Shown: piece by piece, positions 5,098 to 54,310 of the stretch
How positions within the stretch are numbered: position 1 is the first letter of the stretch
Layout: every line of letters starts with the position of its first letter
Origin: Candidatus Cloacimonadales bacterium
Lineage (GTDB): Bacteria > Cloacimonadota > Cloacimonadia > Cloacimonadales > JAFGVF01
Assembly (NCBI GenBank): GCA_963667035.1
Contig: OY762964.1
Span: 546,815-610,814 of the forward strand
Direction: 5' to 3'
Length of the DNA stretch: 64,000 nt
Position numbers and translations under genes: made by a program
Notes under the pieces: model-generated
Databases searched by the model: none
Told to the model about the DNA's origin: nothing
What the model saw: only the letters and a program-made list of their open reading frames with translations

Positions 5098-8000
5098 ATG
5101 ATACGTAGAGGATTTCTGTTATTATTTACGCTTTCAATTATGATGTTATTGGAAGCTAGTGAAATGAAAGAAGGTGCTTTAAGAGCATTTAGAACCGAAG
5201 AAATGGGAAAAGATTATATTGAAATGACCTTTTCCCTTCCTGATTATAGCATTGATACTATCAGCAAAGATGGCAAAGAATTTAAGAAGCTAAACTTCGA
5301 AAATGCTTCTTATTTTTTAGATGAAGGTAAACCGGAGTTACCTTACTTTTCATCATTAATAGCAACTCCACAAGGAAGTTTAATAAAATCAATAGAAGTG
5401 CTATCTTTTGATACCAAAAAGTATGAGGATTTTAGGATTTATCCTGCACAAGATTACTCAAAACCGGACGAACATGTTTTTCATTTTGATTCAGAATACT
5501 ACCAAAGTGATAAGATTTATCCTTACTCTGAAACAAGTATAGGTAATTCAGGAGTACTCAGAGATTTTTATTTGTGTAATTACTCAATTGCACCATGTTT
5601 CTATAATCCATCAGATAACTCTCTGGAAGTCAGGGACAATATTAGAGTCAGGATACATCTTACTAATATTGAAAATTCTTATAATGAATGCAACAAGTAT
5701 TCTATAGCCTTTAAAGATATATATGAGTGCTATATAGATAACTTTGATGCTATTAGAAATAATTTTGAAGAGACTAAGTTTAAACGAATACTTATTATTT
5801 ACAGACAAAATAATGATACCATCTTCCATGCTAAACTAAGTGAGTTCATTAACTGGAAGATACAGCGAGGTTATATTGTTGATACGTTTGATACGAGTGA
5901 AACAGGAACAAGTACTTCCGGTATTAAGAATTTCATCCAATCAAGATATGATGATACAGTTAACAGACCTGATTATCTAATCATAGTTGGAGATGTTAGT
6001 GGAACCTTTGGTATACCGACCTTTATTGAGGACTTATCGAATTATTCAGGTAGTGGGGATCATCCTTATACACATCTTGCAGGAAATGACACTTTAGGTG
6101 ACATGTTTATAGGTAGAATGAGTATAGAAAACACCAACCATTTTTTAACACTTGTTAACAAAGTTTTCTATTATGAAAGAGATATGCCTCTTAATATAAC
6201 AGACTGGTACGATAAAATGTTATTAGTTGGAGATACTGACCCGTCTGGTCAGTCATGTGTCTATGTGAACAAATACATCAAAGCCATTGCTCATCGTATT
6301 AATCCTGATTATAGTTTTACGGAATTATACTCTGACTCACCTTCCATTTCACTAATGAATCAATCTTTATCTCAAGGAGTAGGTATATTTAACTACAGGG
6401 GATTCATTGGAATGAGCAATTGGACTCCTTCTGCCTCAAATCTGAATAATGGTGATAGATTATGTCATAGTACAATACTAACTTGCTCGACAGGAACTTT
6501 TGAATCCAATTCTACAACAGAAGAATTTATCAGATTAGGTTCTCCAACTTTGCCCAAAGGAGCTTTAACAGCGATTGGAATGTCTACTCCGGGTACTCAT
6601 ACTTTGTTTAATAATGCTTTGGCAACAGGAATATGGAATGGAATCTTGAATTATGATATGAGAGATTTGGGACAGGGATTGTTGGCTGGAGAGTTAAACT
6701 TATATAACCAATATAACAGCCGCTATCAAGATGCTGTAGAATATTTTAACCATTGGTGTAATCTAATGGGTGATCCTACTGTAACAATGTATCTTGGAGT
6801 TCCAAAACAGTTTTATGTAGATATCGCTACTACAATTCCTATGGGGACCAGAATTGTTCCCGTTGAAGTACTTGATGAAGACTGGAATCCTTCAATCGGA
6901 GCTATAGTTACAGCTTTCCAACCTCAGGGAATTCATGAGATGGTAAGAACAAATGAATATGGAATGGCGTATATTGAGTTACCTGAAGGTGTTCAAGGGA
7001 ATATTACAGTTACAGTTACAAAAGATGATTATAAATCTAATATCAATACAATTACTGTAGATGGTACCGGAGGAATAGTATATTCGGATTATGTGCTAAT
7101 TGATACGGAAGGAAACAATGACGGAAATGCAAATGCCGGGGAAACAGTTGAACTAAATGTTTCTCTGACAAATAATTCTAATTCTGATATTGATAGCATT
7201 AATGCCACACTTTTGGCATTATCTGATTATGTAACAGTGAATCAGAGCACAGTTTCTTACGGATTGATTTCTCCAAGTAATAATTCAACAGGTAATGGAT
7301 TGTTTAGTGTCTCAATAGCTCCAAATTGCCCTGATACTTTTAAGGCAATAATGAGACTACATATTGAGACTTCTACAGGAAGCAGCTACTCATTTTTTGA
7401 ACTACCGATTCATAATGGTAACTTAGAAATTTCTGACATAGATATTAATGATTATGCCAATGGAATACTTGATCAGGGAGAGACCTCGGAGTTATATATT
7501 AGTTTGATTAACAACGGTACGACAGATTTAACTAACATTAGTTTAGAATTAGTAAGTCTGAATGCATCTGTTGTTGTAGAAGATAGTTTGGTTGAATTAG
7601 GGAATATCAGTGTAAATGATACTGAAGTTAATACCTCCGATCCATTTATAATAAGAACTCGGACTAACGTACTTCCGGGTATGACTATTCCTATGAATAT
7701 CATCTGTTCTAACCAAGATGGATATGAAGAGATGATTAGGTTCAACTTAGAGATTGGGCAGATTAGTGATGAAGACCCCTTTGGACCTGACGATTATGGC
7801 TACTTTATTTATCATAGCTCAGATGATTCATATCACGATTGTCCTGAATACAATTGGATTGAGATTGCACCGGACGAAGGTGGGCAAGGTACGGAATTGA
7901 ATCTATACGACCCGGGTAGTTGGTCAGAGGGAGATGTAGTAGAGGCTAATGCTATTACCCAAACTACACTACCTTTTGAATTTTCATTCTATGGGCAAAC

Positions 8001-10515
8001 TTATGATACAATTTGGATTTGTTCGAATGGATTTGTATCTTTTCTAGAAACTGAATGTGCTGATTGGAGAAACAATGAAATATTTGGAGCGATGACACAG
8101 AATGCTCTTATTGCACCATTCTGGGATGACTTGGATTTAGATTCAAATGCTTCTGTATCGACTTACTATAACAATGAGGAGCAATATTTCGTTATAGAAT
8201 GGAATGAGATGTCTCATGGAGTGACAGGTGCAACAGAGACTTTTGAGATTGTTCTCTACAGTCAGGATTATTATCCTACTTCCATAGGTGATGGGATGAT
8301 TAAGATTCAATATAAAACTTTCAATAATAATGATTATGGATCTGAACATACAGGAGGAAACTTCAGCACAATTGGTATTAGAGATCATACTGGTAAGATG
8401 GGGCTTCAATATAGTTTTAACAATGAATATCTAACAGGGGCGAATGAGATTAATTCTGGTGATGCTTTGTTAGTTACCGGCTCTCCTATATTCTTAGAGG
8501 AGTCATTCCTAGTCTTAGGTTATCCTGTTATTCATGATTCAAATGATAACCATGTAATTGAACCGGGAGAAAGTGTTAATCTTGGAATAAACCTAGTCAA
8601 TATTGGAGCAGGAGTTGCCGAGGGAGTAACTATCAGTGTCTCATCTGAAAGTCCTTATGTCTCAATAAGTAATCATCAGTCAACTTATGACTCCATTCCA
8701 GGTGAAGGTAGTATGTTTGGAAACGAGTTCATTAGTCTGAATATTGCTGATAATACTCCTGACAACCATGAGATTGCTTTAAATGTTGATATCGAGACTC
8801 TCAATAATGGATGGGTAAGAGTTCAAACTCTTAATGTTGTCTCAAATAAGTTAATATATAAAAATGCAAGTATTAATGATCAGGTTAATGGTAATGGTGA
8901 TAAAATAGTACAAGCTGGTGAAGACATTTTTCTCTGTGTAAACCTAGAAAATCCTGAAGTAGTTAAGACAACAGGCATTCAAGTTGGATTAAATTGCTCA
9001 TATCCGGGAGTCGAGATACCAAATAATCTGCAATTAATAGGTGATGCTGATGCTAACAGCACGATACAGACATATTTTGAAATCAGCATTCCTGAAGGAA
9101 TTGCAGATCTGACATATATATCCTTTGAAATAACATATTCTGCAAATGGTGTTAATCAATCCACAGCAAATCTTACTATTGGAATTGGTTTGGCTGATTT
9201 CGATTTTAACTTTGAGAATTCTAATGGTGGTTTGATATCTCAGGGTGGCTGGCAATGGGGTTATGATACTTTAATGGGTTCACATTCAGGGCTTAGAGTC
9301 TGGGGAACTTATTTGAGTGGTAATTATCCTGATAACAATGAGACAACGTTAACAACTCCTGTTATACCGCTAAGTGATAATGCTCAGTTACGTTTCTGGC
9401 ATAAATACCAGTATGATAATCATTATGATGGTGGTAATGTTAAAGTATCCACAGATATGGGTAATAGTTGGGTGTTGATTTATCCTGAGACTGGTTATGA
9501 TGATGCTGTGATTTTCGCTTTAAATGACCAATCAGGTTTTACAGGTAGCAATGGGGTGTGGACTGAAGTTGTCTTTGACCTTTCGAGTTATGCAAATACT
9601 TGTGTTCAGATTAGATGGACTTCAGCTAGTGATTATTATGTTAATGATTATGGTTGGTATATTGATGACTTAGTGATCGAAGGATATACCGGAGGCTCCG
9701 GATATATTACCGGTAATGTAATTTTAGATGGGGAAGAGGATGTAACTAAAGTAAACATCTCAAATGGAGAAGTAGTTACTCATCCCGATAACTCAGGCTC
9801 TTACTATCTTTTCCAAAAAGAAGGAGGTTATAACATTCACGCATTTACTCCACATTATTCAGAAGGGTATGTGAACAGACTTCTTTTAAGTACAGTTAAT
9901 CCGAGTTATTCTGATATTGATTTCTCATTGTTAAGACTAAATGAACCAAACAATTTAAATTGCGTGCAGAACCGTACTGATTTGTTACTTAGTTGGCAAG
10001 CACCCGAATATGAAGGATTAACTCTGAATAGCTATAATATATACAGAAGTATTGATTCCGAACCTTTTGCATTAATTGGTAACACAACAGATACTGCTTA
10101 TACAGATATACTCAGCTATGCTGGTCAGTATAACTATTATGTTGCAGCCTCGTATGAAGAAGGAGAGAGTTTTGATTCTGATTTATTCTCAATAGTCCCG
10201 GATATGACAGATGTAGAGTCTAATACTGTGATAGCAACATGCACTCAGCTTGTGGGTAATTATCCTAATCCATTTAATCCGACTACTTCTTTGATGTTTT
10301 CATTAAAAGAAAATGAAAGAGTCACTATAAAGGTATATAACATTAAAGGACAATTGGTTAATACTATATGCGATGATGTTATGGAAGCCGGAAATCACCG
10401 TATTGTATGGAACGGTAATGATGAACGTGGTAAAATGGTTTCTACTGGTGTGTATCTTTTTAGAATGAAGACAGATAATTATACCGGAACACTTAAATCA
10501 ATTATGATAAAATAG
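5098..10515 (+). CDS. Giant secreted gingipain-like (peptidase C25 family) multidomain protein with a C-terminal sorting domain
   Basis: 1805 aa with a signal peptide. It has a C25 propeptide/catalytic-type region (ILIIYRQ...WKIQRGY..., LIIVGDV, NYRG...W, ILTCSTGTF, GALTAIGMST). There are at least four CARDB-like modules (GETVELNVSLTNN, GETSELYISLINNG, GESVNLGINLVNIG, GEDIFLCVNLEN) and a MAM-like region (GGWQWGYD...). The protein ends in an NYPNPFNPTT... domain. Confidence 0.75.
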   Translation: MIRRGFLLLFTLSIMMLLEASEMKEGALRAFRTEEMGKDYIEMTFSLPDYSIDTISKDGKEFKKLNFENASYFLDEGKPELPYFSSLIATPQGSLIKSIEVLSFDTKKYEDFRIYPAQDYSKPDEHVFHFDSEYYQSDKIYPYSETSIGNSGVLRDFYLCNYSIAPCFYNPSDNSLEVRDNIRVRIHLTNIENSYNECNKYSIAFKDIYECYIDNFDAIRNNFEETKFKRILIIYRQNNDTIFHAKLSEFINWKIQRGYIVDTFDTSETGTSTSGIKNFIQSRYDDTVNRPDYLIIVGDVSGTFGIPTFIEDLSNYSGSGDHPYTHLAGNDTLGDMFIGRMSIENTNHFLTLVNKVFYYERDMPLNITDWYDKMLLVGDTDPSGQSCVYVNKYIKAIAHRINPDYSFTELYSDSPSISLMNQSLSQGVGIFNYRGFIGMSNWTPSASNLNNGDRLCHSTILTCSTGTFESNSTTEEFIRLGSPTLPKGALTAIGMSTPGTHTLFNNALATGIWNGILNYDMRDLGQGLLAGELNLYNQYNSRYQDAVEYFNHWCNLMGDPTVTMYLGVPKQFYVDIATTIPMGTRIVPVEVLDEDWNPSIGAIVTAFQPQGIHEMVRTNEYGMAYIELPEGVQGNITVTVTKDDYKSNINTITVDGTGGIVYSDYVLIDTEGNNDGNANAGETVELNVSLTNNSNSDIDSINATLLALSDYVTVNQSTVSYGLISPSNNSTGNGLFSVSIAPNCPDTFKAIMRLHIETSTGSSYSFFELPIHNGNLEISDIDINDYANGILDQGETSELYISLINNGTTDLTNISLELVSLNASVVVEDSLVELGNISVNDTEVNTSDPFIIRTRTNVLPGMTIPMNIICSNQDGYEEMIRFNLEIGQISDEDPFGPDDYGYFIYHSSDDSYHDCPEYNWIEIAPDEGGQGTELNLYDPGSWSEGDVVEANAITQTTLPFEFSFYGQTYDTIWICSNGFVSFLETECADWRNNEIFGAMTQNALIAPFWDDLDLDSNASVSTYYNNEEQYFVIEWNEMSHGVTGATETFEIVLYSQDYYPTSIGDGMIKIQYKTFNNNDYGSEHTGGNFSTIGIRDHTGKMGLQYSFNNEYLTGANEINSGDALLVTGSPIFLEESFLVLGYPVIHDSNDNHVIEPGESVNLGINLVNIGAGVAEGVTISVSSESPYVSISNHQSTYDSIPGEGSMFGNEFISLNIADNTPDNHEIALNVDIETLNNGWVRVQTLNVVSNKLIYKNASINDQVNGNGDKIVQAGEDIFLCVNLENPEVVKTTGIQVGLNCSYPGVEIPNNLQLIGDADANSTIQTYFEISIPEGIADLTYISFEITYSANGVNQSTANLTIGIGLADFDFNFENSNGGLISQGGWQWGYDTLMGSHSGLRVWGTYLSGNYPDNNETTLTTPVIPLSDNAQLRFWHKYQYDNHYDGGNVKVSTDMGNSWVLIYPETGYDDAVIFALNDQSGFTGSNGVWTEVVFDLSSYANTCVQIRWTSASDYYVNDYGWYIDDLVIEGYTGGSGYITGNVILDGEEDVTKVNISNGEVVTHPDNSGSYYLFQKEGGYNIHAFTPHYSEGYVNRLLLSTVNPSYSDIDFSLLRLNEPNNLNCVQNRTDLLLSWQAPEYEGLTLNSYNIYRSIDSEPFALIGNTTDTAYTDILSYAGQYNYYVAASYEEGESFDSDLFSIVPDMTDVESNTVIATCTQLVGNYPNPFNPTTSLMFSLKENERVTIKVYNIKGQLVNTICDDVMEAGNHRIVWNGNDERGKMVSTGVYLFRMKTDNYTGTLKSIMIK

Positions 10516-10530
10516 GTTTTATGAAACTTA

Positions 10531-10560
10531 CTAACGCCCTTTTAATTAAAAGGGCGTTAG
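10531..10560 (+). terminator. Palindromic hairpin terminator after the C25-like gene
   Basis: Perfect palindrome CTAACGCCCTTTTAA/TTAAAAGGGCGTTAG 15 nt after the stop codon. The flanking T/A runs are weak. Confidence 0.5.
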
Positions 10561-10809
10561 TACTTTATTATACCTGTGAATACTATGAGTTATATTCATC
10601 AGTGTAACTGCTTACAACATAAATAAATAAAAATAAGTTGACCTGACATAAACAACATCTAATGTTTGTAAGGTATACATTAGTTAGAATATAAAATAAA
10701 CAGATAAATGGTGGCATTATGTTAATTAATCATTTCAAGAATAAGCGTCGCAATATTAAAGCTTATCTACAATTTCGACAAAAGTATCTGTGGAGGATAT
10801 ATATGTCAG

Positions 10810-10840
10810 AGGGTGGTTAGTATAACCACCCTTCTTTTTT
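10810..10840 (+). terminator. Strong plus-strand intrinsic terminator with no annotated plus-strand gene upstream
   Basis: AGGGTGGTTA-GTA-TAACCACCCT (10-bp stem) followed by TCTTTTTT. The T-tract abuts the stop codon of the convergent bcp gene. On the minus strand no T-run follows the hairpin. Confidence 0.6.
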
Positions 10841-11306
10841 ATCCAAGTTGTTTCGCTATTTTCAGAATTCTTTCGGCATGACCTTTCGCTTTCACATTAT
10901 AAAAGCATTCTTCAATCTTACCTTCGGGATTTACAATGAAAGTACTTCTGATAACTCCCGTCAGTTTTTTCCCATACATCATTTTATCTCCCCAGGTTTC
11001 AAAGATTCTGTGCATCTCAAGTTTCGGGTCACTCAGTAGCGTGAAAGATAGCCCTTGCTTGCTTTTAAAGCTTTGGTGGCTTTTTACGGAATCTTTACTG
11101 ACTCCGATAATTTCGAAACCAATCTCTTTAAACTTATCCTGTAAGCATGTAAAATCTTTTGCCTCCAAAGTACATCCTGGAGTATTATCTTTAGGATAGA
11201 AATAAAGTATCGTCCATTGTCCAACTATATCATCTTTAGTTATTGTATTTCCTGACTCATCAATTGCACTAAATTCAGGTAAATCGGAACCTTTGTTTAA
11301 TTTCAT
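10839..11306 (-). CDS. bcp: Thiol peroxidase Bcp (peroxiredoxin Q type)
   Basis: 155 aa with the peroxidatic Cys motif FYPKDNTPGCTLEA and overall AhpC/TSA-family similarity. Confidence 0.9.
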   Translation of the reverse strand: MKLNKGSDLPEFSAIDESGNTITKDDIVGQWTILYFYPKDNTPGCTLEAKDFTCLQDKFKEIGFEIIGVSKDSVKSHQSFKSKQGLSFTLLSDPKLEMHRIFETWGDKMMYGKKLTGVIRSTFIVNPEGKIEECFYNVKAKGHAERILKIAKQLG

Positions 11307-11390
11307 GTTACCTCCAATAAATATAGTTTATTGTCTAAAACAAAAAAGGCTACAATTAATGTAGCCTAAATCTATTATTGATCTAAATAT

Positions 11391-14129
11391 TTATTTCATT
11401 AACAAGGTTTTTCTAACTTTTGATTGTCCCTGAGATTCTAACTTAAAGAAGTAAACTCCTGAACTTAAAGTGTTTCCGTTATTATCATCACCATTCCAAA
11501 TAACAGTGTGTTCTCCTTGAGTCATGCTATTATTAACCAGTGTATTGACTTTTCTTCCTCTTATATCATACACTGATAGATTAGCAAGTCCGTTCTCCGG
11601 AATACTGAATGCTATGTTAGTTGTAGGATTAAATGGATTAGGATAATTACTAAGCATCATCTTGCTATTAACAACTTGATGCTGTTCTCCATTTGCAGTA
11701 GGAGCTCCAAGAACTGATGTTATCATTAAATTTCCTGAAGCATATTCTTGCCAATCCGATGTATTGGTCTCTTTAACCAAGGTATTACCGGATTGCTCAG
11801 TATCTACACCAATAGCAGAACTATTTACTGTATAAATCACACCTATAAAGTAGTTATTGCTAATCTCCAAGTTTTCAGAAGTCAAATCAATAGTGTGCCA
11901 TCCTTCAGTAATATTTTTTCTGTAAACTTGCTGAGACAGCATACTGTCGGGCTCTCCATTAACCTCGTCATATACTCTTAGAACTATAGGATTAGTATCA
12001 GCGGTTTGTATATAGAATCTTATATAGTCTATATTAGCTGATTCATTATTTGAGAATTTTACTACTGCAATACCACCGGGGTTATATAGAATTCCGTCTT
12101 CTGCAGTGTCATTGACATATCCAAAATTAGTGTATTCATTACCAAAAACAAAAGCTTCGGTTTCTTGAGTTGGTTCTGATTCTCCGTCTAAATATCCTGC
12201 TGTTACTGTATAGTGATGCAATCCTGGTTCAGGATTAGAATCAGTATATGATAAAATATAACGATCATAGATTGTATCTATAACTTGTCCATTATCCAAG
12301 ATGTTATAACCAAGTAACGAAGAATTGCTTATCCCGGGATGGTTCCAATTAATAGTAACCGCTTCTTCTTCATTGATTATTGAGTTTATGTTAATGGCAG
12401 GATAAACAGTAATATTACTATTAAAAAAGTTAAATACATTATGAATGAATTGATTCTTGGCGGATAAATCAGTCAAACGACTTAGGGAATATGACATCAC
12501 AACGCTTCTTTGTCCGTTGTCTCCTATATTCTGAACAGCAACGACACCATAGTCACTTTCAGAAAAGACAGGTTTACCGTTACCTGGTTCATAATAATCT
12601 ATTGTTTCAAGATTTGTTTGGTATGTATCATTGAAAGAAAGATGCATACCTACAGAAAAGGGATAGCCTTGTAAATTATCTATATCGTTGTATGTCCCGT
12701 TATTAACCGATTCTATACCTAACAAATTTAATAAGGTAGTATTTGAATTCTGGTCAACTCCAAGTACATCTGCACCTTCAATATATAGATTACCACCTTT
12801 CTGTAAATAATCTTTTACTGCTAATGCCATAGGATCTGTAAGCTCTGAATAACCGTCTTGCGAATTACCGAAGCTTAAGAAAACAGCATCATAACCATTT
12901 AAATTGTAAGGAAGCTCATAGGTGTTTTCTGCAACAAAACCTTGTGCATTTGCTTCGACATAAAAGTCGTTTCCACTGCAATCTGCAGAATTCATACCAT
13001 TCCAAATTAGTAGTCCTTCATTTGGTGTATAATTCTCGGGGACTATACCTATTACTGCTGCTTGATTGTCATTAAAGACATAACCTGGGTTAATATTCGA
13101 AACTAAATAATATCCGTTACCACTGCCGGACCAACCGAAATCAATATGAAAATAATCATTTTCCCGATAGCCATCCATGACAAAAGCATGTCCACCATCA
13201 TCACCTGATCCAGAATAATATATTACTCGAGCTTCATCAAGCTCTGATCTAAGCATATTACCCCATTGTGTTGGAGAATAGTAACTTTTTTCAACAAAAG
13301 TAGTTGAGTTAGCATAGCCGAAATAATCTTTCATAGCATCTGGAACATCCCGAGAAAAAGCTCCGGAAGCATCAGCTGAATACATCATTTCAACTGAAAC
13401 TCCACAATCATAAATCAATTTAGCTATCTGTTCATAATCAGAACCGATTTCTCTTGGCATTTGCCACCAATCATACTCAGAAGCAGAATAATTAACACTC
13501 AAATATCCATAACCAGTAGAATAGAAGCTATGAGTTCCTTCCCCGACTTCAGGATAATTCCAATATCTCATACATTGAGCCATTGCTGTTGCAACACAAC
13601 CGGCAGCAACATGACCTCCGGACCCATCCGGATCTTCAGGGCATAGGGCATTATATGGCCAGGTTTGATGCCATCGACTTGGAAGAAGTGGAGCTACTGA
13701 ACTATCTGTCCTTGAAAAAGTATTAGTATCTATGCTTTGCCATAAAGCTCTTGTCTCAGTTGAAGGAAGATCTTTTTCAATTACTTGATAAACTTCTTCA
13801 CTATAGGTGTTTAACCAGTATTTGATTCCCGGGTTGTCGCTATCAAGAGTAAGGCTACCTTCATCGGACCAAGCCAATATGGGTTGGCATCTATCATCGG
13901 AAGTTGTTATAACAAATCCATCGTTTTTATAGTTAATTATGTAAAGAGCTAACATGCTCTTATTGTATACTTTGTGTACACTTTCAATTGAAGATGTATC
14001 TTTTCTCATTGATGTTTGCAAATCCATCCATTTCCCGGCTACTGAAATTACTTTTGATTCAGGTACCGGGATTGCTCTTATAGTGCTGATTAACAACAAT
14101 ATAATCAGCAAACCGATTAATCTCTTCAT
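11391..14129 (-). CDS. Secreted peptidase C10 (streptopain-like cysteine peptidase) with N-terminal inhibitor propeptide and C-terminal sorting domain
   Basis: 912 aa with a signal peptide. The propeptide is Spi-type (LYIINYKNDGFVITTSDDRCQPILAWSDEG). The catalytic Cys context is HVAAGCVATAMAQCMRYWNYP and the catalytic His context is GGHAFVMDGY. The C-terminus is an NYPNPFNPTT... domain. Confidence 0.8.
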   Translation of the reverse strand: MKRLIGLLIILLLISTIRAIPVPESKVISVAGKWMDLQTSMRKDTSSIESVHKVYNKSMLALYIINYKNDGFVITTSDDRCQPILAWSDEGSLTLDSDNPGIKYWLNTYSEEVYQVIEKDLPSTETRALWQSIDTNTFSRTDSSVAPLLPSRWHQTWPYNALCPEDPDGSGGHVAAGCVATAMAQCMRYWNYPEVGEGTHSFYSTGYGYLSVNYSASEYDWWQMPREIGSDYEQIAKLIYDCGVSVEMMYSADASGAFSRDVPDAMKDYFGYANSTTFVEKSYYSPTQWGNMLRSELDEARVIYYSGSGDDGGHAFVMDGYRENDYFHIDFGWSGSGNGYYLVSNINPGYVFNDNQAAVIGIVPENYTPNEGLLIWNGMNSADCSGNDFYVEANAQGFVAENTYELPYNLNGYDAVFLSFGNSQDGYSELTDPMALAVKDYLQKGGNLYIEGADVLGVDQNSNTTLLNLLGIESVNNGTYNDIDNLQGYPFSVGMHLSFNDTYQTNLETIDYYEPGNGKPVFSESDYGVVAVQNIGDNGQRSVVMSYSLSRLTDLSAKNQFIHNVFNFFNSNITVYPAININSIINEEEAVTINWNHPGISNSSLLGYNILDNGQVIDTIYDRYILSYTDSNPEPGLHHYTVTAGYLDGESEPTQETEAFVFGNEYTNFGYVNDTAEDGILYNPGGIAVVKFSNNESANIDYIRFYIQTADTNPIVLRVYDEVNGEPDSMLSQQVYRKNITEGWHTIDLTSENLEISNNYFIGVIYTVNSSAIGVDTEQSGNTLVKETNTSDWQEYASGNLMITSVLGAPTANGEQHQVVNSKMMLSNYPNPFNPTTNIAFSIPENGLANLSVYDIRGRKVNTLVNNSMTQGEHTVIWNGDDNNGNTLSSGVYFFKLESQGQSKVRKTLLMK

Positions 14130-21598: not shown

Positions 21599-21675
21599 CG
21601 CGAGGTGGAGCAGTTAGGTAGCTCGTTGGGCTCATAACCCAAAGGCCGGAGGTTCAAATCCTCCCCTCGCTACCA
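21599..21675 (+). tRNA. tRNA-fMet (CAT), initiator type
   Basis: Manual cloverleaf. It has a C1/U72 mismatch at the top of the acceptor stem and three consecutive G-C pairs closing the anticodon stem (GGGCTCATAACCC). The T-arm is GGAGGTTCAAATCCTCC and the 3' CCA is encoded. Confidence 0.9.
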
Positions 21676-21676
21676 A

Positions 21677-21753
21677 GGCGGCGTAGCTCAGTTGGTTAGA
21701 GCATCGGAATCATAATCCGAGTGTCCGGGGTTCAAGTCCCTGCGCCGCTACCA
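21677..21753 (+). tRNA. tRNA-Met (CAT) elongator type, or tRNA-Ile2 if C34 is lysidinylated
   Basis: GGCGGCG acceptor, D-arm TAGCTCAGTTGGTTAGAGC, anticodon loop ATCATAA, T-arm CGGGGTTCAAGTCCCTG, CCA encoded. Met versus Ile2 cannot be decided from the sequence alone. Confidence 0.85.
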
Positions 21754-21801
21754 AGTTTATAATCGCTTATCGCAAGATAAGCTAATTTTATATGTGAATG
21801 C

Positions 21802-21878
<77 letters not shown>

Positions 21879-21888
21879 TTTCTTTTAT

Positions 21889-21965
21889 GGTGGCTGTAGC
21901 TCAGCTGGCAGAGTACTTGATTGTGGCTCAAGATGTCGCGGGTTCAAGTCCCGTCAGCCACCCCA
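21889..21965 (+). tRNA. tRNA-His (GTG)
   Basis: It has the extra G-1 opposite C73 that is diagnostic of tRNA-His. The anticodon stem-loop is CTTGA-TTGTGGC-TCAAG and the T-arm is GCGGGTTCAAGTCCCGT. CCA is encoded. Confidence 0.9.
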
Positions 21966-49347: not shown

Positions 49348-49378
49348 AAAAGTGACTCGGAATTGAGTCACTTTTTTT
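49348..49378 (+). terminator. Rho-independent terminator after the MATE gene
   Basis: AGTGACTC-GGAATT-GAGTCACT followed by TTTTTT. Confidence 0.75.
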
Positions 49379-49552
49379 ATGAATGGGCTATTGATGCATA
49401 AATAGAACTCTTCTCACAATAGAAACATATTCAAATCATTATTCATGCAAGTAAGATAACAAAGAATAATAGTTAAAAGTAAAAACTTTAATTGACTTAA
49501 TTAGTAATCTTTCATATCTTTGATATTAATCAATGGAGGATAACTATTTATT

Positions 49553-50803
49553 ATGTATTTACTACAAAAGATTACTGGAAACAAGTTTAACCGAATTAAT
49601 TCAATTATTGATTCATATAATTATACTCAGAATAATTTCATCAATCTTATTGCCTGTGTATGTTATATTTTTCCAGAAGTTATAGAAGCGATGAAATTCC
49701 CATTATCCACTTTGCCAACAGAAGGATTAATGAATAATAGATATTTCCCAACATATGATTATATGGAAAGAATTGAAGTATTATCACAAGAGCAAGCCTT
49801 GAAATTGTTTAAAATTAGTTCTGGTTATAAAGTAAACATACAACCACATTCAGGAACTCAAGCTAACCATATTATTTACAATGCAATATTAAAGGATGGA
49901 GATAGGGTTATTAGCATGTCTCCTTTTGATGGCGGACATATTTCACACACTAAATTAGCTGGAAGAAAATTAGAGTTACTTCATTTCTATTTGAATGACG
50001 ACTACAAACTGGATTACAATCTGATTGAGAATATGATTATGGAGTTTAAACCAACTCTGTTAATTGCAGGAGTTAGTTCTTATCCAAGAGAAATTGACTT
50101 CCAACTTCTATCACAGATATCACACAAGCATAATTGCTATATTCTTGCTGATATAAGTCATACTGCTATATTTGTTGCAGGAGAAGTACATAAAAACGTT
50201 TTCCCATATGTAGATTTTGCTACTTTCACTATGGAAAAAAACTTGAGAGGTCCTCATGGAGGAGTTATCATTTATAAAGAGAAATTTCACAAGGCAATAT
50301 CATATTCAACATTCCCTATATCCCAAGGAGGTCCTATACAAAATATGCTTTTTGGTAAACTTGTTGCATTTGAATTACTAAATCAAACAAATGTTAAAGA
50401 ATATGCTAATAGATTGGTTTCAAATGCCAGGAGTGTATCTAAAACATTATTAGAGAGAGGTTGCGATGTTGTAACTTCAGGGACAGATAGTCACATAATC
50501 TTAGTTAATACTAAATCTCATGGACTTCTAGGTAATAAAGCTGAGAATATCCTAGAAAAGAACAGAATTTTGGTAAATCGAAATCTGATTCCAAAAGATA
50601 AAGAGAAACCTTTAATTACTTCTGGGATTAGAATAGGGAGTACTACAATTACTAATCTTAATTATGAGTTTGTAGACGTCATAAATTTATCCAATACTTT
50701 AGCTGATGTATTATTGAATAGAAAAACTGATGAACATAATGTAAGATATCTATTGAACAAATACCATAGTAGTATCAATATCTCCAGTGAGGAGACAAAA
50801 TAA
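49553..50803 (+). CDS. Divergent serine hydroxymethyltransferase-family PLP enzyme (paralog, function uncertain)
   Basis: 416 aa, colinear with GlyA. Matching regions are NIQPHSGTQANHIIYNAIL, FDGGHISH, ADISHTA, the PLP-lysine context TMEKNLRGPHGG and SGIRIGSTTITN. The canonical N-terminal motifs are altered (see findings). Confidence 0.65.
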   Translation: MYLLQKITGNKFNRINSIIDSYNYTQNNFINLIACVCYIFPEVIEAMKFPLSTLPTEGLMNNRYFPTYDYMERIEVLSQEQALKLFKISSGYKVNIQPHSGTQANHIIYNAILKDGDRVISMSPFDGGHISHTKLAGRKLELLHFYLNDDYKLDYNLIENMIMEFKPTLLIAGVSSYPREIDFQLLSQISHKHNCYILADISHTAIFVAGEVHKNVFPYVDFATFTMEKNLRGPHGGVIIYKEKFHKAISYSTFPISQGGPIQNMLFGKLVAFELLNQTNVKEYANRLVSNARSVSKTLLERGCDVVTSGTDSHIILVNTKSHGLLGNKAENILEKNRILVNRNLIPKDKEKPLITSGIRIGSTTITNLNYEFVDVINLSNTLADVLLNRKTDEHNVRYLLNKYHSSINISSEETK

Positions 50804-53126
50804 ATAGAAATTGTATTAATCCATCATTTATAGGTAATTTAATAACTAGCTCATTACCTGTTTCTTTTCTTGCATTAAGTCTTGTTAGGAAATAGCTAGA
50901 GATTTGAATTGTTTTGTTAGTTACTAAACAACTTTCAATTGATACTAGATTGTAACCTATACAAAACTGCATCCATGGATCTTGAATTTTAGTAACACAT
51001 TCATACATTTTTTCTATTTCACTCTTAGCCATTAGAATATCCAATTCTTTTAAGGCAATATTAATAATAATCTGATTATTCGACAGCATTAATTGATCTA
51101 ATATTAGTGACTTAGGATAAGAATCAATCGCTCTTTCGATGTATTCTTTTGCGATATCATATTTTCTATTTATCGTATATAAAGCAGCCATATTACACAA
51201 TGGTTCAAAAATTTCATTAGAGTTTATTTGATTAAACAACTCTATGGAATTTGATAAATTTCTCTCAGCTTCAGGATAACTGTGGTTCCATAAATAAACT
51301 AATCCTAAATTGTTTAGCGCAGTAGCTCTACCAAACAGAAAATTGTTTTGTCTGAAATAATTGTAAACACTTTTCAGATTTATAATAGCTTTCTCATAAC
51401 TAAAATAATGTGCTGAGTTTCTTAAAATTACGAAATATGACTCATCATTGGTTGGTGGAAGATTATAGATTATTTCTTTTGCTTCTTTATCGTAGCAAAG
51501 GTGTTGGTAAATGTTTAACCTATACAAGATTGTTTCCAATTTGTTGTTATCTAATTGAGTGCATACTTTTAACGCTTCTTTAAAGTGATAGGATTGAGTT
51601 AGGTACTTAACCTTATATAGCAAATAATCTGAAGTTTTTGCATAAGTTGTATCTTCAATAATTCTAATTGCTTCAATTCCTAAATAAATCTCAGAAGTTT
51701 TTTGAAATGAGTCAAGTAACTGAGTGACCGAGATATCTGGCAAAATGGTTATTATTTCTTTATACGCTTTATAAATAAGGATGATGTATTGATACATATT
51801 ATTATTATATTGAATGTCGATTAGTCGTATAACGTAATCAAGTTTGGTCTTATATTGATTTATTGAAAAAATACCAACAAAGCAGTGGAGTATATAAGAA
51901 TAATCATTAGGAGCTATGTTAGTATTAAACAGCTCCTCCATTGCAATCAAGATATCATCTCTAATCTGGAGAAACTCTTCATCAGTTAAACCTTTCTTTG
52001 TAGAAGTAATAATCTTCTCGTGAGCTGGTTTAAGAAGTTGTCCATTAGAACTATTTAGTACTATGTATCCAATCTTTACCAAATCTCTAATGCTATCCTC
52101 AATAACATCATTTTCGTTTCCATTCAGAATAGACTTAAGTAACTCTATAATGTATTTCTTTTTCATTCCTGCAGGAAACATTGATGAGATTGTTACCAAA
52201 TATTTTTTTATATAAGGAAAATAGCATATTGTTTCTGTGATATCATAAATACTTTTTCTTGTAGTTGGCTCTTTATAAGCATTTAAGAACAATTCCATTT
52301 CTTTTAAGTTACCTAATGTTTTTTCATAACACCTATTAGCAACGAACATAGCTTCTTCATGATTGCAGTGTATAACTTTTTTTACTAATTCTATGATCTC
52401 ATCAATGTTAAATTGAGAAAGGGATATGAGTAAACTACTTTTAGTAAAAGTAGAAGCAAGATTAAAATTATCAATATCTAAAATTGTTCTGTTAATAAAT
52501 ATAAAATTTATCTCTTTTTTTAATCGCGAAATATGAGACTCAAAAAGAGTTTTAGTATATTTAGGTAGAAATTGATAGTTATCTATGGCAATATAGGTTT
52601 TAGTTTTATTTGCTATATAATCTAAGTATTTATATAAGGTAATCATTATATCTGGTGTAGGATCATGAGAATTCTTTTTAAATAAATTTCTCGGGAAAAG
52701 CTCTTTTAAAGGTTTTCCAAATGAAGGTATTAATTCTAAAGTTGATGAGATAGTTTTAACCAGTTTATTTATAGCAGACTTCTTTAATCCTGAGGATTTT
52801 AAAAAGGCAGGGAATGTACATCCTTTTAAAACATTTAGTGGATAGTTAAATTCAAACGAATGCTCATTCCAAGCACAATAGATTAAATATTCAGCAAAAA
52901 GAGTAATAGTAAAATCATCATTACTCAAATCTATGTAAATCATAGTAACATCTTTTTGAATTGTATATATTGAATGCATTAACTCCTTTACTAGAAAAGT
53001 TTTTCCTGTACCAGAATTACCTTCTACGATAAGGAGTTTAGGTTGTTTCTTTTCTATATTCTTGAAAAAAGACATAGCAGAATCAATTAAGCATTGTCTC
53101 ACAACGAATGGAAATCTAGAACCCAT
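50775..53126 (-). CDS. P-loop NTPase (AAA_16/STAND-like) with a C-terminal TPR-like repeat region
   Basis: 783 aa. The sequence FVVRQ...KKQPKLLIVEGNSGTGKTFLVKEL carries Walker A, and TYIAIDNYQFL looks like Walker B. The C-terminus is long and helical with TPR-like units (ALNNLGLVYLWNHSYPEAERNLSNSIELF). I found no recognisable HTH or enzymatic effector domain. Confidence 0.6.
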   Translation of the reverse strand: MGSRFPFVVRQCLIDSAMSFFKNIEKKQPKLLIVEGNSGTGKTFLVKELMHSIYTIQKDVTMIYIDLSNDDFTITLFAEYLIYCAWNEHSFEFNYPLNVLKGCTFPAFLKSSGLKKSAINKLVKTISSTLELIPSFGKPLKELFPRNLFKKNSHDPTPDIMITLYKYLDYIANKTKTYIAIDNYQFLPKYTKTLFESHISRLKKEINFIFINRTILDIDNFNLASTFTKSSLLISLSQFNIDEIIELVKKVIHCNHEEAMFVANRCYEKTLGNLKEMELFLNAYKEPTTRKSIYDITETICYFPYIKKYLVTISSMFPAGMKKKYIIELLKSILNGNENDVIEDSIRDLVKIGYIVLNSSNGQLLKPAHEKIITSTKKGLTDEEFLQIRDDILIAMEELFNTNIAPNDYSYILHCFVGIFSINQYKTKLDYVIRLIDIQYNNNMYQYIILIYKAYKEIITILPDISVTQLLDSFQKTSEIYLGIEAIRIIEDTTYAKTSDYLLYKVKYLTQSYHFKEALKVCTQLDNNKLETILYRLNIYQHLCYDKEAKEIIYNLPPTNDESYFVILRNSAHYFSYEKAIINLKSVYNYFRQNNFLFGRATALNNLGLVYLWNHSYPEAERNLSNSIELFNQINSNEIFEPLCNMAALYTINRKYDIAKEYIERAIDSYPKSLILDQLMLSNNQIIINIALKELDILMAKSEIEKMYECVTKIQDPWMQFCIGYNLVSIESCLVTNKTIQISSYFLTRLNARKETGNELVIKLPINDGLIQFLFILSPHWRY

Positions 53127-53142
53127 AATAAATAGTTATCAT

Positions 53143-54105
53143 TTATTCATTCAACACCTCCTTACTCATTGAAAATTTCCGTCTTGGATGTTTTGAGTTT
53201 AGGATTTTCTTTTGGCTCTTTCTATTTACATGAGTATATATTTGGGTTGTATTGATTGAGCTATGTCCCAGAAAGTGTTGAATATACTTTATATCTACAC
53301 CCTCTTCCAATAGAAGAGTAGCGAAGGTATGTCGGAAGGTATGAGGAGTGATTTTTTTATCTATTTTCGCTAATTTAACATATCTGTTTATCATAAATCG
53401 TACTGATTGAGCTGAAATGTTATTGTCTAATCTGTTAAGAAAAAAGTAGGTTCTATTAGGGTGATTTTTAGCAATTGCTATATCAAAGTTCCTAAGAGAT
53501 TGAATAATTTCTTTACTACAGATATGTATGATTCTTTCTTTTGCTCCTTTCCCATAAACAATAATATGATTACTTTTTAGATCAATTTGATTGTGCTTGA
53601 GTGAACAAAGCTCCGAAATTCTTATTCCTGTTCCAAACAATAACTCTAGAATCGCAATATCCCTACAACATGAAGTGTAAGTATAGTGACTGGAGTTTAT
53701 CATAGAGTTCTTAAAATTGTATGCAGAAGTAAGTATTCTTTTTACTTCGCTTAATGTTAGCACATTAGGTAGAGTTTTAGGAACCTTAAGTTTGATGCGT
53801 AGTTTCCTAAAAGGGTTTACAGCTATAATATCTTCAAATTCAAGATAGTTTAAGAATGATTTTAAAGACGCTATTTTCCTTTTAGCTGTTTTAACTTTGT
53901 ATGAAGACACTAAAAATTCCACATACTGTCTGATTAATGCCTTGTCTAAATTAGATATATCCGATTGAGAATCACCTGTCTTTTCATTAATAAAGTTCAT
54001 GAATTGAGTAAAATCCGATTTATATGCCGATAAGGTTTTCTTACTTAGGTTCTTCTCATAAGTGCAATGAAAAGTAAACTGCTCCAAACATTCTTTAACT
54101 GTCAT
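53143..54105 (-). CDS. Tyrosine site-specific recombinase (XerC/XerD-like integrase family)
   Basis: 320 aa with an N-terminal SAM-like domain (LSKKTLSAYKSDFTQFMNFI). The catalytic region contains R (GTGIRISEL), HTFRHTFATLLL and GHSSINTTQIYTH (catalytic Tyr). Confidence 0.9.
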   Translation of the reverse strand: MTVKECLEQFTFHCTYEKNLSKKTLSAYKSDFTQFMNFINEKTGDSQSDISNLDKALIRQYVEFLVSSYKVKTAKRKIASLKSFLNYLEFEDIIAVNPFRKLRIKLKVPKTLPNVLTLSEVKRILTSAYNFKNSMINSSHYTYTSCCRDIAILELLFGTGIRISELCSLKHNQIDLKSNHIIVYGKGAKERIIHICSKEIIQSLRNFDIAIAKNHPNRTYFFLNRLDNNISAQSVRFMINRYVKLAKIDKKITPHTFRHTFATLLLEEGVDIKYIQHFLGHSSINTTQIYTHVNRKSQKKILNSKHPRRKFSMSKEVLNE

Positions 54106-54310
54106 TTAAACTCCCCAATTTAAATGTAGAACAACTTAGGAATATAGAATATCATGTCTATAGTGAATTTGGAAAAGAGTAATCAATAGTTCCATGACTA
54201 ACTATCAACTTTCATAATCTAATCAGTATGGTATCAGTTATGTTTCTCAATAATCTGATTGACTAAACACGAAGGTCAGAAATATTCTCTGAGAATAAGG
54301 AGAGTATATT

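Follow-up and report, generated by a model that had tools for sequence, protein, structure and literature searches.

The subject of this work is a 4.9-kb segment, low in GC, within a window of 64,000 nt (the whole stretch of DNA analysed) from a Candidatus Cloacimonadales bacterium. The segment holds three genes, encoding a P-loop NTPase of STAND type, a diverged enzyme of the serine hydroxymethyltransferase (SHMT) fold and a Xer-like tyrosine recombinase (Table 1). In relatives, the 3.6-kb cassette formed by the first two genes inverts between two short inverted cores. We consider, with moderate confidence, that the locus is a site-specific DNA inversion switch and that its cargo is a phase-variable candidate conflict module.

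The two cargo genes are bracketed in the window by an exact 17-nt inverted repeat, GATAACTATTTATTATG, of which just two exact copies occur within the 64 kb. An earlier reading of this DNA, made from the letters and their translations (hereafter, the sequence-only reading), had missed this repeat. In a repeat search, the 17-nt core was found inside a 28-nt imperfect inverted repeat. The core consists of the arms GATAA and TTAT around an asymmetric 7-bp spacer, CTATTTA, as in the sites of tyrosine recombinases, and resembles the inner part of dif. The two copies end on the start codons of the SHMT-like gene and of the NTPase gene, respectively, and the right one starts 2 nt past the stop codon of the recombinase gene. 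No third core was present nearby within 3 mismatches, and the matches in the rest of the window were at chance level.

Table 1 Coordinates, strand and basis of the features considered (positions refer to the window, unless a locus is named)
Feature	Position	Strand	Basis or remark
Left core, GATAACTATTTATTATG	49539..49555	+	Last 3 nt are the start codon of the SHMT-like gene; extended repeat 49528-49555
Right core, same 17-mer inverted	53124..53140	-	Last 3 nt are the start codon of the NTPase gene; extended repeat 53124-53151
Diverged SHMT-fold PLP-dependent enzyme, 416 aa	49553..50803	+	Pfam SHMT, E = 1.6e-85
STAND-type P-loop NTPase with TPR array, 783 aa	50775..53126	-	Pfam, AF2, Foldseek
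Convergent 3′ overlap of the cargo genes, 29 nt	50775..50803	.	No terminator between the genes
Xer-like tyrosine recombinase, 320 aa, candidate cassette invertase	53143..54105	-	Pfam, alignment to XerD
Constant flank outside the cassette ("distal slot"), reading inward	49380..49538	+	Predicted promoter and SD-like site
Recombinase/M1 peptidase intergenic region (M1 gene divergent)	54106..54310	.	Recombinase promoter presumably here
Low-GC accessory segment with the whole module inside	49380..54310	.	GC and tetranucleotide profile
ICE-like context of the streptococcal module	L016:2836-6592, 11906-13197; plasmid locus L039		Rep_trans, FtsK/SpoIIIE, DUF961, PezAT

Inversion of the cassette in related loci

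Relatives of the cassette were collected starting from either cargo gene. Exact look-ups gave six genomic contexts of the NTPase family; in all six the NTPase gene was convergent and overlapping with an SHMT-like gene, and in four of them a tyrosine recombinase gene was adjacent. A genome scan added 29 loci, hence 35 NTPase-seeded loci were available. As a reciprocal test, a metagenome scan was seeded with motifs of the SHMT-like clade, and this produced 80 loci. We found inverted repeats flanking the pair in 34 of the 35 NTPase-seeded loci and, among 73 further loci, in all the SHMT-seeded ones having both cassette ends on the contig. The sequence of the core varies by lineage and its architecture is constant: the streptococcal core is GATAA-TAAATTG-TTATC, that of Paenibacillus CCAAATAA-CTACGAA-TTATTTGG. 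In the window and in its closest relative (locus L001, 54% identity in the NTPase) the repeats reach the start codon; in streptococci and Paenibacillus they contain the ribosome-binding site. In four loci (L099, at 5876-5936 and 10272-10332, L102, L108 and L110) each long inverted repeat holds two different cores about 20-40 nt apart, which suggests nested or alternative recombination sites.

The inversion itself is seen in pairs of loci that are nearly identical and differ in the orientation of the cassette. Precisely, between Streptococcus oralis (L022) and S. rubneri (L019) the flanks are 89-95% identical and a 98.9%-identical cassette is flipped, with the breakpoints inside the repeats. 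Opposite orientations were also found for L013 and L015, whose cassettes are 99.97% identical, and, in an independent gut-metagenome lineage, for L046 and L050, in which the flanks are 97-99% and the flipped cassettes 99.55% identical; L077/L073 and L079/L069 are further flipped pairs. A G/A polymorphism on the inner side of the core travels with its gene and the outer flank is exchanged, hence the crossover takes place within the 17-bp core.

Moreover, at least nine contigs from independent assemblies (L006, L011, L020, L024, L028, L058, L063, L091 and L107) start and end at the repeats. Since these repeats are shorter than typical assembler k-mers, we infer that such ends are assembly breaks due to the presence of both orientations in the sample. 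Two more contigs, L123 (7960-8082) and L124, end about 100 nt after a gene for a recombinase 59% identical to that of the window; the break is located shortly after a core, GGATAACTGTATATTATG, and the beginning of an NTPase-like open reading frame (ORF). Here too the assembly has broken at a switch of this kind.

In the 71 loci in which the arrangement was counted, all four configurations of recombinase and cassette are present. On the cassette side, the neighbour of the recombinase gene is the NTPase gene 23 times and the SHMT-like gene 48 times; the recombinase gene reads toward the cassette in 32 of the loci and in the other direction in 39. With the exception of L030, a tyrosine recombinase gene lies beside the cassette in all the loci with enough flank. 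The three ORFs of the window and the overlap of the cargo genes are as the sequence-only reading had described them, and so is the start of the NTPase gene 17 nt past the recombinase stop (the gap is of 16 nt and the ATG begins at the 17th). Its suggestion that these two genes are probably co-transcribed can apply to only one of the two states of the switch; L001 has the opposite state, with the recombinase gene followed by the SHMT-like gene.

The same design was found with a different cargo. The recombinase closest to that of the window (65% identity) is encoded in L121, from another Cloacimonetes metagenome-assembled genome (MAG), beside a cassette (7001-12800) bounded by the inverted repeats GGATAA-CTGTATA-TTATCC. 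This cassette carries the genes of a methyltransferase and of a strongly diverged SHMT-fold enzyme (22% identity with that of the window); convergent and overlapping with the latter is the gene of an 896-aa protein, which has transmembrane segments and TPR-like repeats as well as a P-loop (GKGKT) and a Walker B motif of the form IIDN. A comparison by hhalign gave no detectable homology between the 896-aa protein and the NTPase family, so the design is older and broader than this family. The recurrence of the layout suggests that the mechanism has inversion as an essential part and not as a chance accompaniment. Just beyond the L121 cassette, at 13043-13495, a palindromic repeat of about 60-70 nt is present in four copies, spaced by about 128 nt, perhaps similar to repetitive extragenic palindromic (REP) sequences or to miniature inverted-repeat transposable elements (MITEs).

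The cargo pair and the recombinase

The two cargo genes are tightly linked to each other. All 35 NTPase-seeded loci have the SHMT-like gene in a convergent arrangement with that of the NTPase and, reciprocally, an NTPase gene lies convergently downstream of the SHMT-like gene in 73 of the 74 SHMT-seeded loci with room for it. In the exception, L105 (1053-2279), the SHMT-like gene is split into two ORFs with no NTPase gene downstream, apparently a decayed remnant of the module. The 3′ overlap measures 17-29 nt across the loci inspected gene by gene, and the pairwise identities of the NTPases correlate with those of the SHMT-like proteins with r = 0.97. By linkage and sequence divergence, the two genes are obligate, co-evolving partners. 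The sequence-only reading had spoken of unrelated cargo, which these figures contradict, and had proposed a search for co-occurrence of the two families, which returned the linkage just described.

The module is distributed sporadically over Cloacimonadota, Bacteroidota, Bacillota (oral streptococci and gut Lachnospiraceae) and Acidobacteriota. The hosts of the 29 loci from the genome scan include mitis-group Streptococcus, Gemella, Lachnospiraceae, Roseburia, Eubacterium, Prolixibacteraceae, Thermoanaerobaculia, Anaeroplasmataceae and MAGs of Bacilli; S. mitis, S. oralis and S. pneumoniae are among the human oral streptococci that carry it, and S. mitis C22, Eubacterium album LFL-14 and Paenibacillus borealis among the isolates. 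In S. mitis C22 the module has on one side genes typical of integrative and conjugative elements (ICEs), namely Rep_trans, FtsK/SpoIIIE and two DUF961 genes, and on the other the toxin-antitoxin pair PezAT. The S. salivarius module is carried by a 188-kb plasmid, adjoining PezAT (zeta/epsilon), and the three genes there are named only generically by the Prokaryotic Genome Annotation Pipeline (PGAP). L001 is surrounded by insertion sequence, helix-turn-helix and HEPN/nucleotidyltransferase genes.

For the NTPase, Pfam gave a weak P-loop match (AAA_16/nSTAND) and TPR_12. In the AlphaFold2 (AF2) model, with a predicted local distance difference test (pLDDT) score of 83, a nucleotide-binding domain (NBD) is followed by a helical domain and a winged helix, then by a TPR array, and the chain closes with a beta-hairpin. 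The best solved structure found by Foldseek is 6mfv, a STAND-TPR protein (E = 1e-13), and Cdc6/Orc1, SAMD9, MalT, Apaf-1, CED-4 and plant NRCs follow; a weak match to the TPR region of AfsR was also obtained. Domain layout and top fold match thus bear out the assignment to STAND-like NTPases made by the sequence-only reading. The protein of the window has the Walker A motif GNSGTGKT, the Walker B motif IDNYQF, the conserved His of the winged helix and a C-terminal SPHWRY. In 16/16 aligned members Walker A (GxSGTGKT) and Walker B (hhhIDNYQF) are conserved, the latter with D-N in the place of D-D/E; an Arg after the sensor strand, a GxP-like FPAG, the winged-helix His and an invariant C-terminal SP(H/N)WRY are further motifs of the family.

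The NTPase of the window begins directly at the P-loop domain and has no effector fused to it; neither in Pfam nor in the AF2 model could a DNA-binding output domain be recognised. Two relatives, P0006 and P0008, have a fused N-terminal PRTase-CE domain, and the cassette of P0006 is bounded by the same core as that of the window; a TIR-like N-terminus is present in one more distant relative. Cassettes of about 4.4 kb (L005, at 7357-7954, and also L006, L011, L018 and L020) have extra ORFs of 52 aa and 159 aa, within the repeats and upstream of the NTPase gene, with no match in Pfam. We considered the 159-aa ORF as a possible split PRTase-CE and rejected it, as there was no similarity. The family is small and sharply bounded: a word-indexed search gave 17 matches, and an exhaustive search among 1.84 billion proteins about 112 cluster representatives with E <= 1e-30, nearly all of them 750-820 aa long. 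The exact sequence of the window NTPase had no record in an exact-sequence look-up.

The SHMT-like protein satisfies the Pfam model (PF00464) and scores 323.7 with the NCBIfam SHMT model NF000586, under the cut-off of 335; its best matches in the PDB are SHMTs. The clade retains K229, which binds pyridoxal 5′-phosphate (PLP), together with E57, D200, H126, N347 and R363. The canonical active-site set of SHMT (Y55, E57, Y65, H228, R235 and R363) is incomplete in it: K229, E57 and R363 are kept, and the substitutions Y55P, Y65F, G66P, S99T, H228D/E and R235Q/H are near-fixed across the clade, those at positions of the set (Y55P, Y65F, H228D/E and R235Q/H) being present in nearly all of 27 clade members. 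Given the retained PLP residues and the near-fixed substitutions, we read the protein as a probably active PLP enzyme with altered chemistry and not as a decaying copy. The diverged SHMT paralog recognised by the sequence-only reading is confirmed by the sub-threshold score and by the clade-fixed changes in the active site. NCBIfam also gave a weak match to fluorothreonine transaldolase, and PGAP labels the relatives of the protein only as a generic PLP-dependent enzyme.

The recombinase has a Phage_integrase domain (Pfam, E = 4.8e-43) and a SAM-like N-terminal domain. Its best match in the PDB is XerD (E = 3.5e-33), in alignment with which all six catalytic residues, R-K-H-R-H-Y, are found. 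The family is very large, with 7309 matches at E < 1e-30. A housekeeping XerC or XerD, an identity that the sequence-only reading had seen as incompatible with its proposal, was rejected, as the protein scores 247.3 bits with the XerC equivalog (cut-off 335.15) and 244.3 bits with that of XerD (cut-off 329.6). No second Xer-like gene was found within the 64-kb window, and no other candidate enzyme accompanies the cassette.

Proposed expression layout and rival explanations

The position of the cores suggests how the switch may operate. Since both start codons are adjacent to the repeats or lie within them, neither cargo gene has room for a promoter of its own inside the cassette. Each gene would be expressed from whichever fixed outer flank faces its start, and inversion would move either gene into the expression slot of the other. 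The two slots would be unequal, as one follows the recombinase gene and the other is behind the opposite flank. In the state of the window, the SHMT-like gene would occupy the distal slot and the NTPase gene the one after the recombinase. The distal slot contains a promoter-like TTGACT-17-TATCTT at 49492-49520, a match to a consensus that may not be that of the host, and a GGAGG similar to a Shine-Dalgarno (SD) site at 49535-49539, 13 nt before the SHMT-like ATG; the NTPase gene follows the recombinase gene without an SD site. Given that no terminator was found at the junction of the convergent genes, transcription from the stronger slot would likely run antisense through the other gene, and the expression of the two would then be reciprocal. 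Inversion would make the activity of the module phase-variable within a population. An Rfam riboswitch scan of the flanks gave no match. A strong promoter on one flank only, considered for streptococci, was dropped, as extended -10 motifs were present on both sides.

With less firmness, we propose that the STAND NTPase could be the sensor or switch of the module and the SHMT-like enzyme its catalytic partner, with a substrate that might be an amino acid, a folate or a nucleotide-linked compound. Architecture and context point, again more weakly, to a conflict or defence-type module carried on mobile elements. A more specific form of this proposal, which we advance tentatively and regard as somewhat unlikely, is a phase-variable conflict system of a kind not recognised before. 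Its toggle would let a cell strongly express the STAND sensor NTPase or the SHMT-fold PLP enzyme, not the two together, and the enzyme would be an effector of a new type, rewiring one-carbon, amino-acid or nucleotide metabolism. If this were true, a clonal population would split into two states, either armed and safe or producer and responder.

Several observations weigh against a phase-variable conflict switch. The window itself shows one orientation only, the inversion being observed in relatives. In the promoter scan, promoter-like sites were on both flanks in many loci, with no consistent asymmetry. As regards a conflict role, PADLOC gave only mad8 across 50 residues of the P-loop (E = 1e-5), with no match for the other two proteins and no Avs model, so the check with defence-system tools proposed by the sequence-only reading returned no real match; moreover, the module was not found on phage records or on viral contigs, both of which were searched. 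Lastly, the identity of the recombinase correlates with that of either cargo gene at only about 0.42, and the cassettes of L098 and L099, 96.7% identical to each other, are homologous exactly as far as the cores, beyond which the flanks differ. In these two loci (about 1243-5717 of L098 and 5916-10292 of L099) the recombinases are 84% identical and lie on opposite sides of the cassette, in different orientations.

Judged from these sequences, the L098/L099 cassette appears to behave as a discrete exchangeable module and, given also the loose coupling of the recombinase, the sites may also, or instead, serve cassette exchange. In the explanation built on this, the repeats would be mainly exchange sites, similar to pdif sites or to those of recombinase-mediated cassette exchange (RMCE), the NTPase/SHMT-like pair would move as a unit between loci with a compatible Xer-like recombinase, and inversion would be a by-product without regulatory meaning. 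The correlation of 0.97 between the cargo genes, set against that of about 0.42 with the recombinase, agrees with it, as do a core, GATAACTATTTATTAT, common to cassettes whose NTPases are only 32-45% identical, and a recombinase family far larger than the NTPase family. We consider this explanation unlikely. Near-identical loci with identical flanks repeatedly differ in orientation and many contigs break at the repeats, which indicates frequent and ongoing inversion. In addition, exchange alone does not predict repeats placed exactly on the start codon or ribosome-binding site together with a convergent overlap, a layout kept even in L121. The two roles are, in any case, compatible with each other. 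A purely metabolic unit, which we regard as improbable, would consist of an SHMT-like aldolase or transaldolase under a STAND regulator similar to MalT or AfsR, with the trait phase-varied and no role in conflict. SHMT-family enzymes include threonine transaldolases, and the weak fluorothreonine transaldolase match is in line with this; so are the presence of MalT among the fold matches, the weak AfsR match and the methyltransferase added beside the PLP enzyme in L121. Conversely, the NTPase lacks a recognisable DNA-binding output domain, genes for other biosynthetic or transport functions are not conserved in the neighbourhood, and the PRTase-CE fusions and the TIR-like domain of a more distant relative are typical of conflict systems.

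The explanation given by the sequence-only reading was a 4.9-kb integrated island, with the recombinase as integrase at att sites of the island ends. Its compositional side is well founded. The segment has a GC content of 0.290, against 0.352 +/- 0.011 in all the other segments of the same size (minimum 0.318; z = -5.4), and its tetranucleotide distance is larger than that of any other such segment; the AT-richness noted by eye is therefore real, and the strong terminator assigned to the MATE gene corresponds to a hairpin at 49348-49378. The segment is probably accessory and horizontally acquired, in agreement with the sporadic distribution over phyla and the carriage on mobile elements, and the trio is absent beside the M1 peptidase gene in the two nearest relatives of this peptidase that were found (74% and 66% identity). 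What found no support is the integrase role at the edge, and we regard the island explanation as very improbable. The repeat search found no direct repeats of att type at the segment boundaries, for which the sequence-only reading had proposed to look; the only sites are the two cores, which are inverted and internal to the segment. Since they bracket only the cargo genes, and since inversion is seen in relatives, the recombinase is probably an invertase and not an island-edge integrase. Besides, the streptococcal module is cargo of a larger ICE-like element with its own machinery, and the tRNA genes are 27 kb off. As regards synteny, the same two relatives have no MATE gene adjoining the M1 peptidase gene either, so that this neighbourhood is not conserved and no clean empty site can be defined.

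Judged from the organism names attached to homologues of the M1 peptidase, the host belongs to Cloacimonadota. As for the rest of the window, the four tRNA genes (Met, Met, Arg-TCT and His) are tightly clustered at 21599-21965 and unrelated to the module. In the gap between the recombinase and M1 peptidase genes there is an imperfect palindrome at 54181-54211 (ATAGTT...AACTAT), which could be an operator or an accessory site. In a cluster look-up, five proteins of the window were all singletons, hence without close relatives.

Relation to known systems and significance

Inversion switches and STAND NTPases are, taken by themselves, known kinds. The G segment of phage Mu and the C segment of P1 are inverted by the serine invertases Gin and Cin, respectively, and the Moraxella pilin segment by Piv, an invertase of a different kind; in each case the alternatives are variant alleles of a single protein. 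The cassette described here shares with these systems a segment of a few kb, short inverted repeats, a recombinase gene just outside, convergent genes and expression signals on the outside; it differs from them in the Xer-like tyrosine recombinase and in the two unrelated genes, of an NTPase and a PLP enzyme, that it swaps. With the XerC/XerD-dif system it has in common the Xer-like recombinase and the inner arms of dif, ATAA...TTAT. Unlike that system, it has a single dedicated recombinase adjoining the sites, which scores below the equivalog cut-offs, a spacer of 7 and not 6 bp, and no visible link to chromosome dimer resolution. The pdif modules of Acinetobacter plasmids are likewise bracketed by inverted sites.

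As in the "epigenetic invertons" of type I restriction-modification hsdS genes, in fimS with FimB/FimE and in the invertible promoters of Bacteroides, a dedicated tyrosine recombinase is encoded beside short inverted repeats; in those switches, however, a promoter is inverted or the domains of a single gene are shuffled, whereas the present cassette flips two whole genes and would exchange their expression slots. Populations of mixed orientation, often with control of defence-related functions, are described for tyrosine-recombinase switches in two published works (PMC7672463; PMC9881135); in the passages of the latter (PMC9881135) that were searched, the cargo family did not occur.

As regards the cargo, the NTPase has the P-loop NBD, helical domain, winged helix and TPR sensor array of Avs, bNACHT, MalT, Apaf-1/CED-4 and PH0952 (6mfv), and its relatives bear N-terminal effector-type domains as antiviral STAND proteins do. 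It differs from these proteins in the lack of a fused effector and of an Avs or PADLOC match, in the D-N Walker B, in the invariant C-terminal SP(H/N)WRY motif and in the obligate convergent SHMT-like partner. The SHMT-like enzyme, in turn, belongs to the same fold family as GlyA and retains the PLP lysine, D200, H126, E57, N347 and R363; it departs from GlyA in the six near-fixed substitutions listed above, in the score below the cut-off and in being always paired with the NTPase.

The sequence-only reading knew of no described system with this trio, and we found none in PADLOC or in literature searches with SHMT, STAND, recombinase, inverton and PRTase-CE. Precisely, in the literature searched we did not find a description of the cargo pair, of the swap of two unrelated convergent genes as whole genes, or of a dedicated Xer-like invertase acting on dif-like cores at both start codons. 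The effector logic of the module is possibly new as well.

These results turn an unexplained three-gene insert into a defined genetic device, a recombinase toggle that would swap two unrelated genes between expression slots, and that is conserved across several phyla, human oral streptococci and gut Lachnospiraceae included. Short contigs ending at such repeats are an assembly signature of these switches, and the 17-nt core with its single recombinase could serve as a tool for inversion or cassette exchange. Should the cargo prove to be a defence or conflict module, an SHMT-fold PLP enzyme would be added to the partners of STAND NTPases, and the locus would be a new example of phase-variable immunity on ICEs and plasmids.

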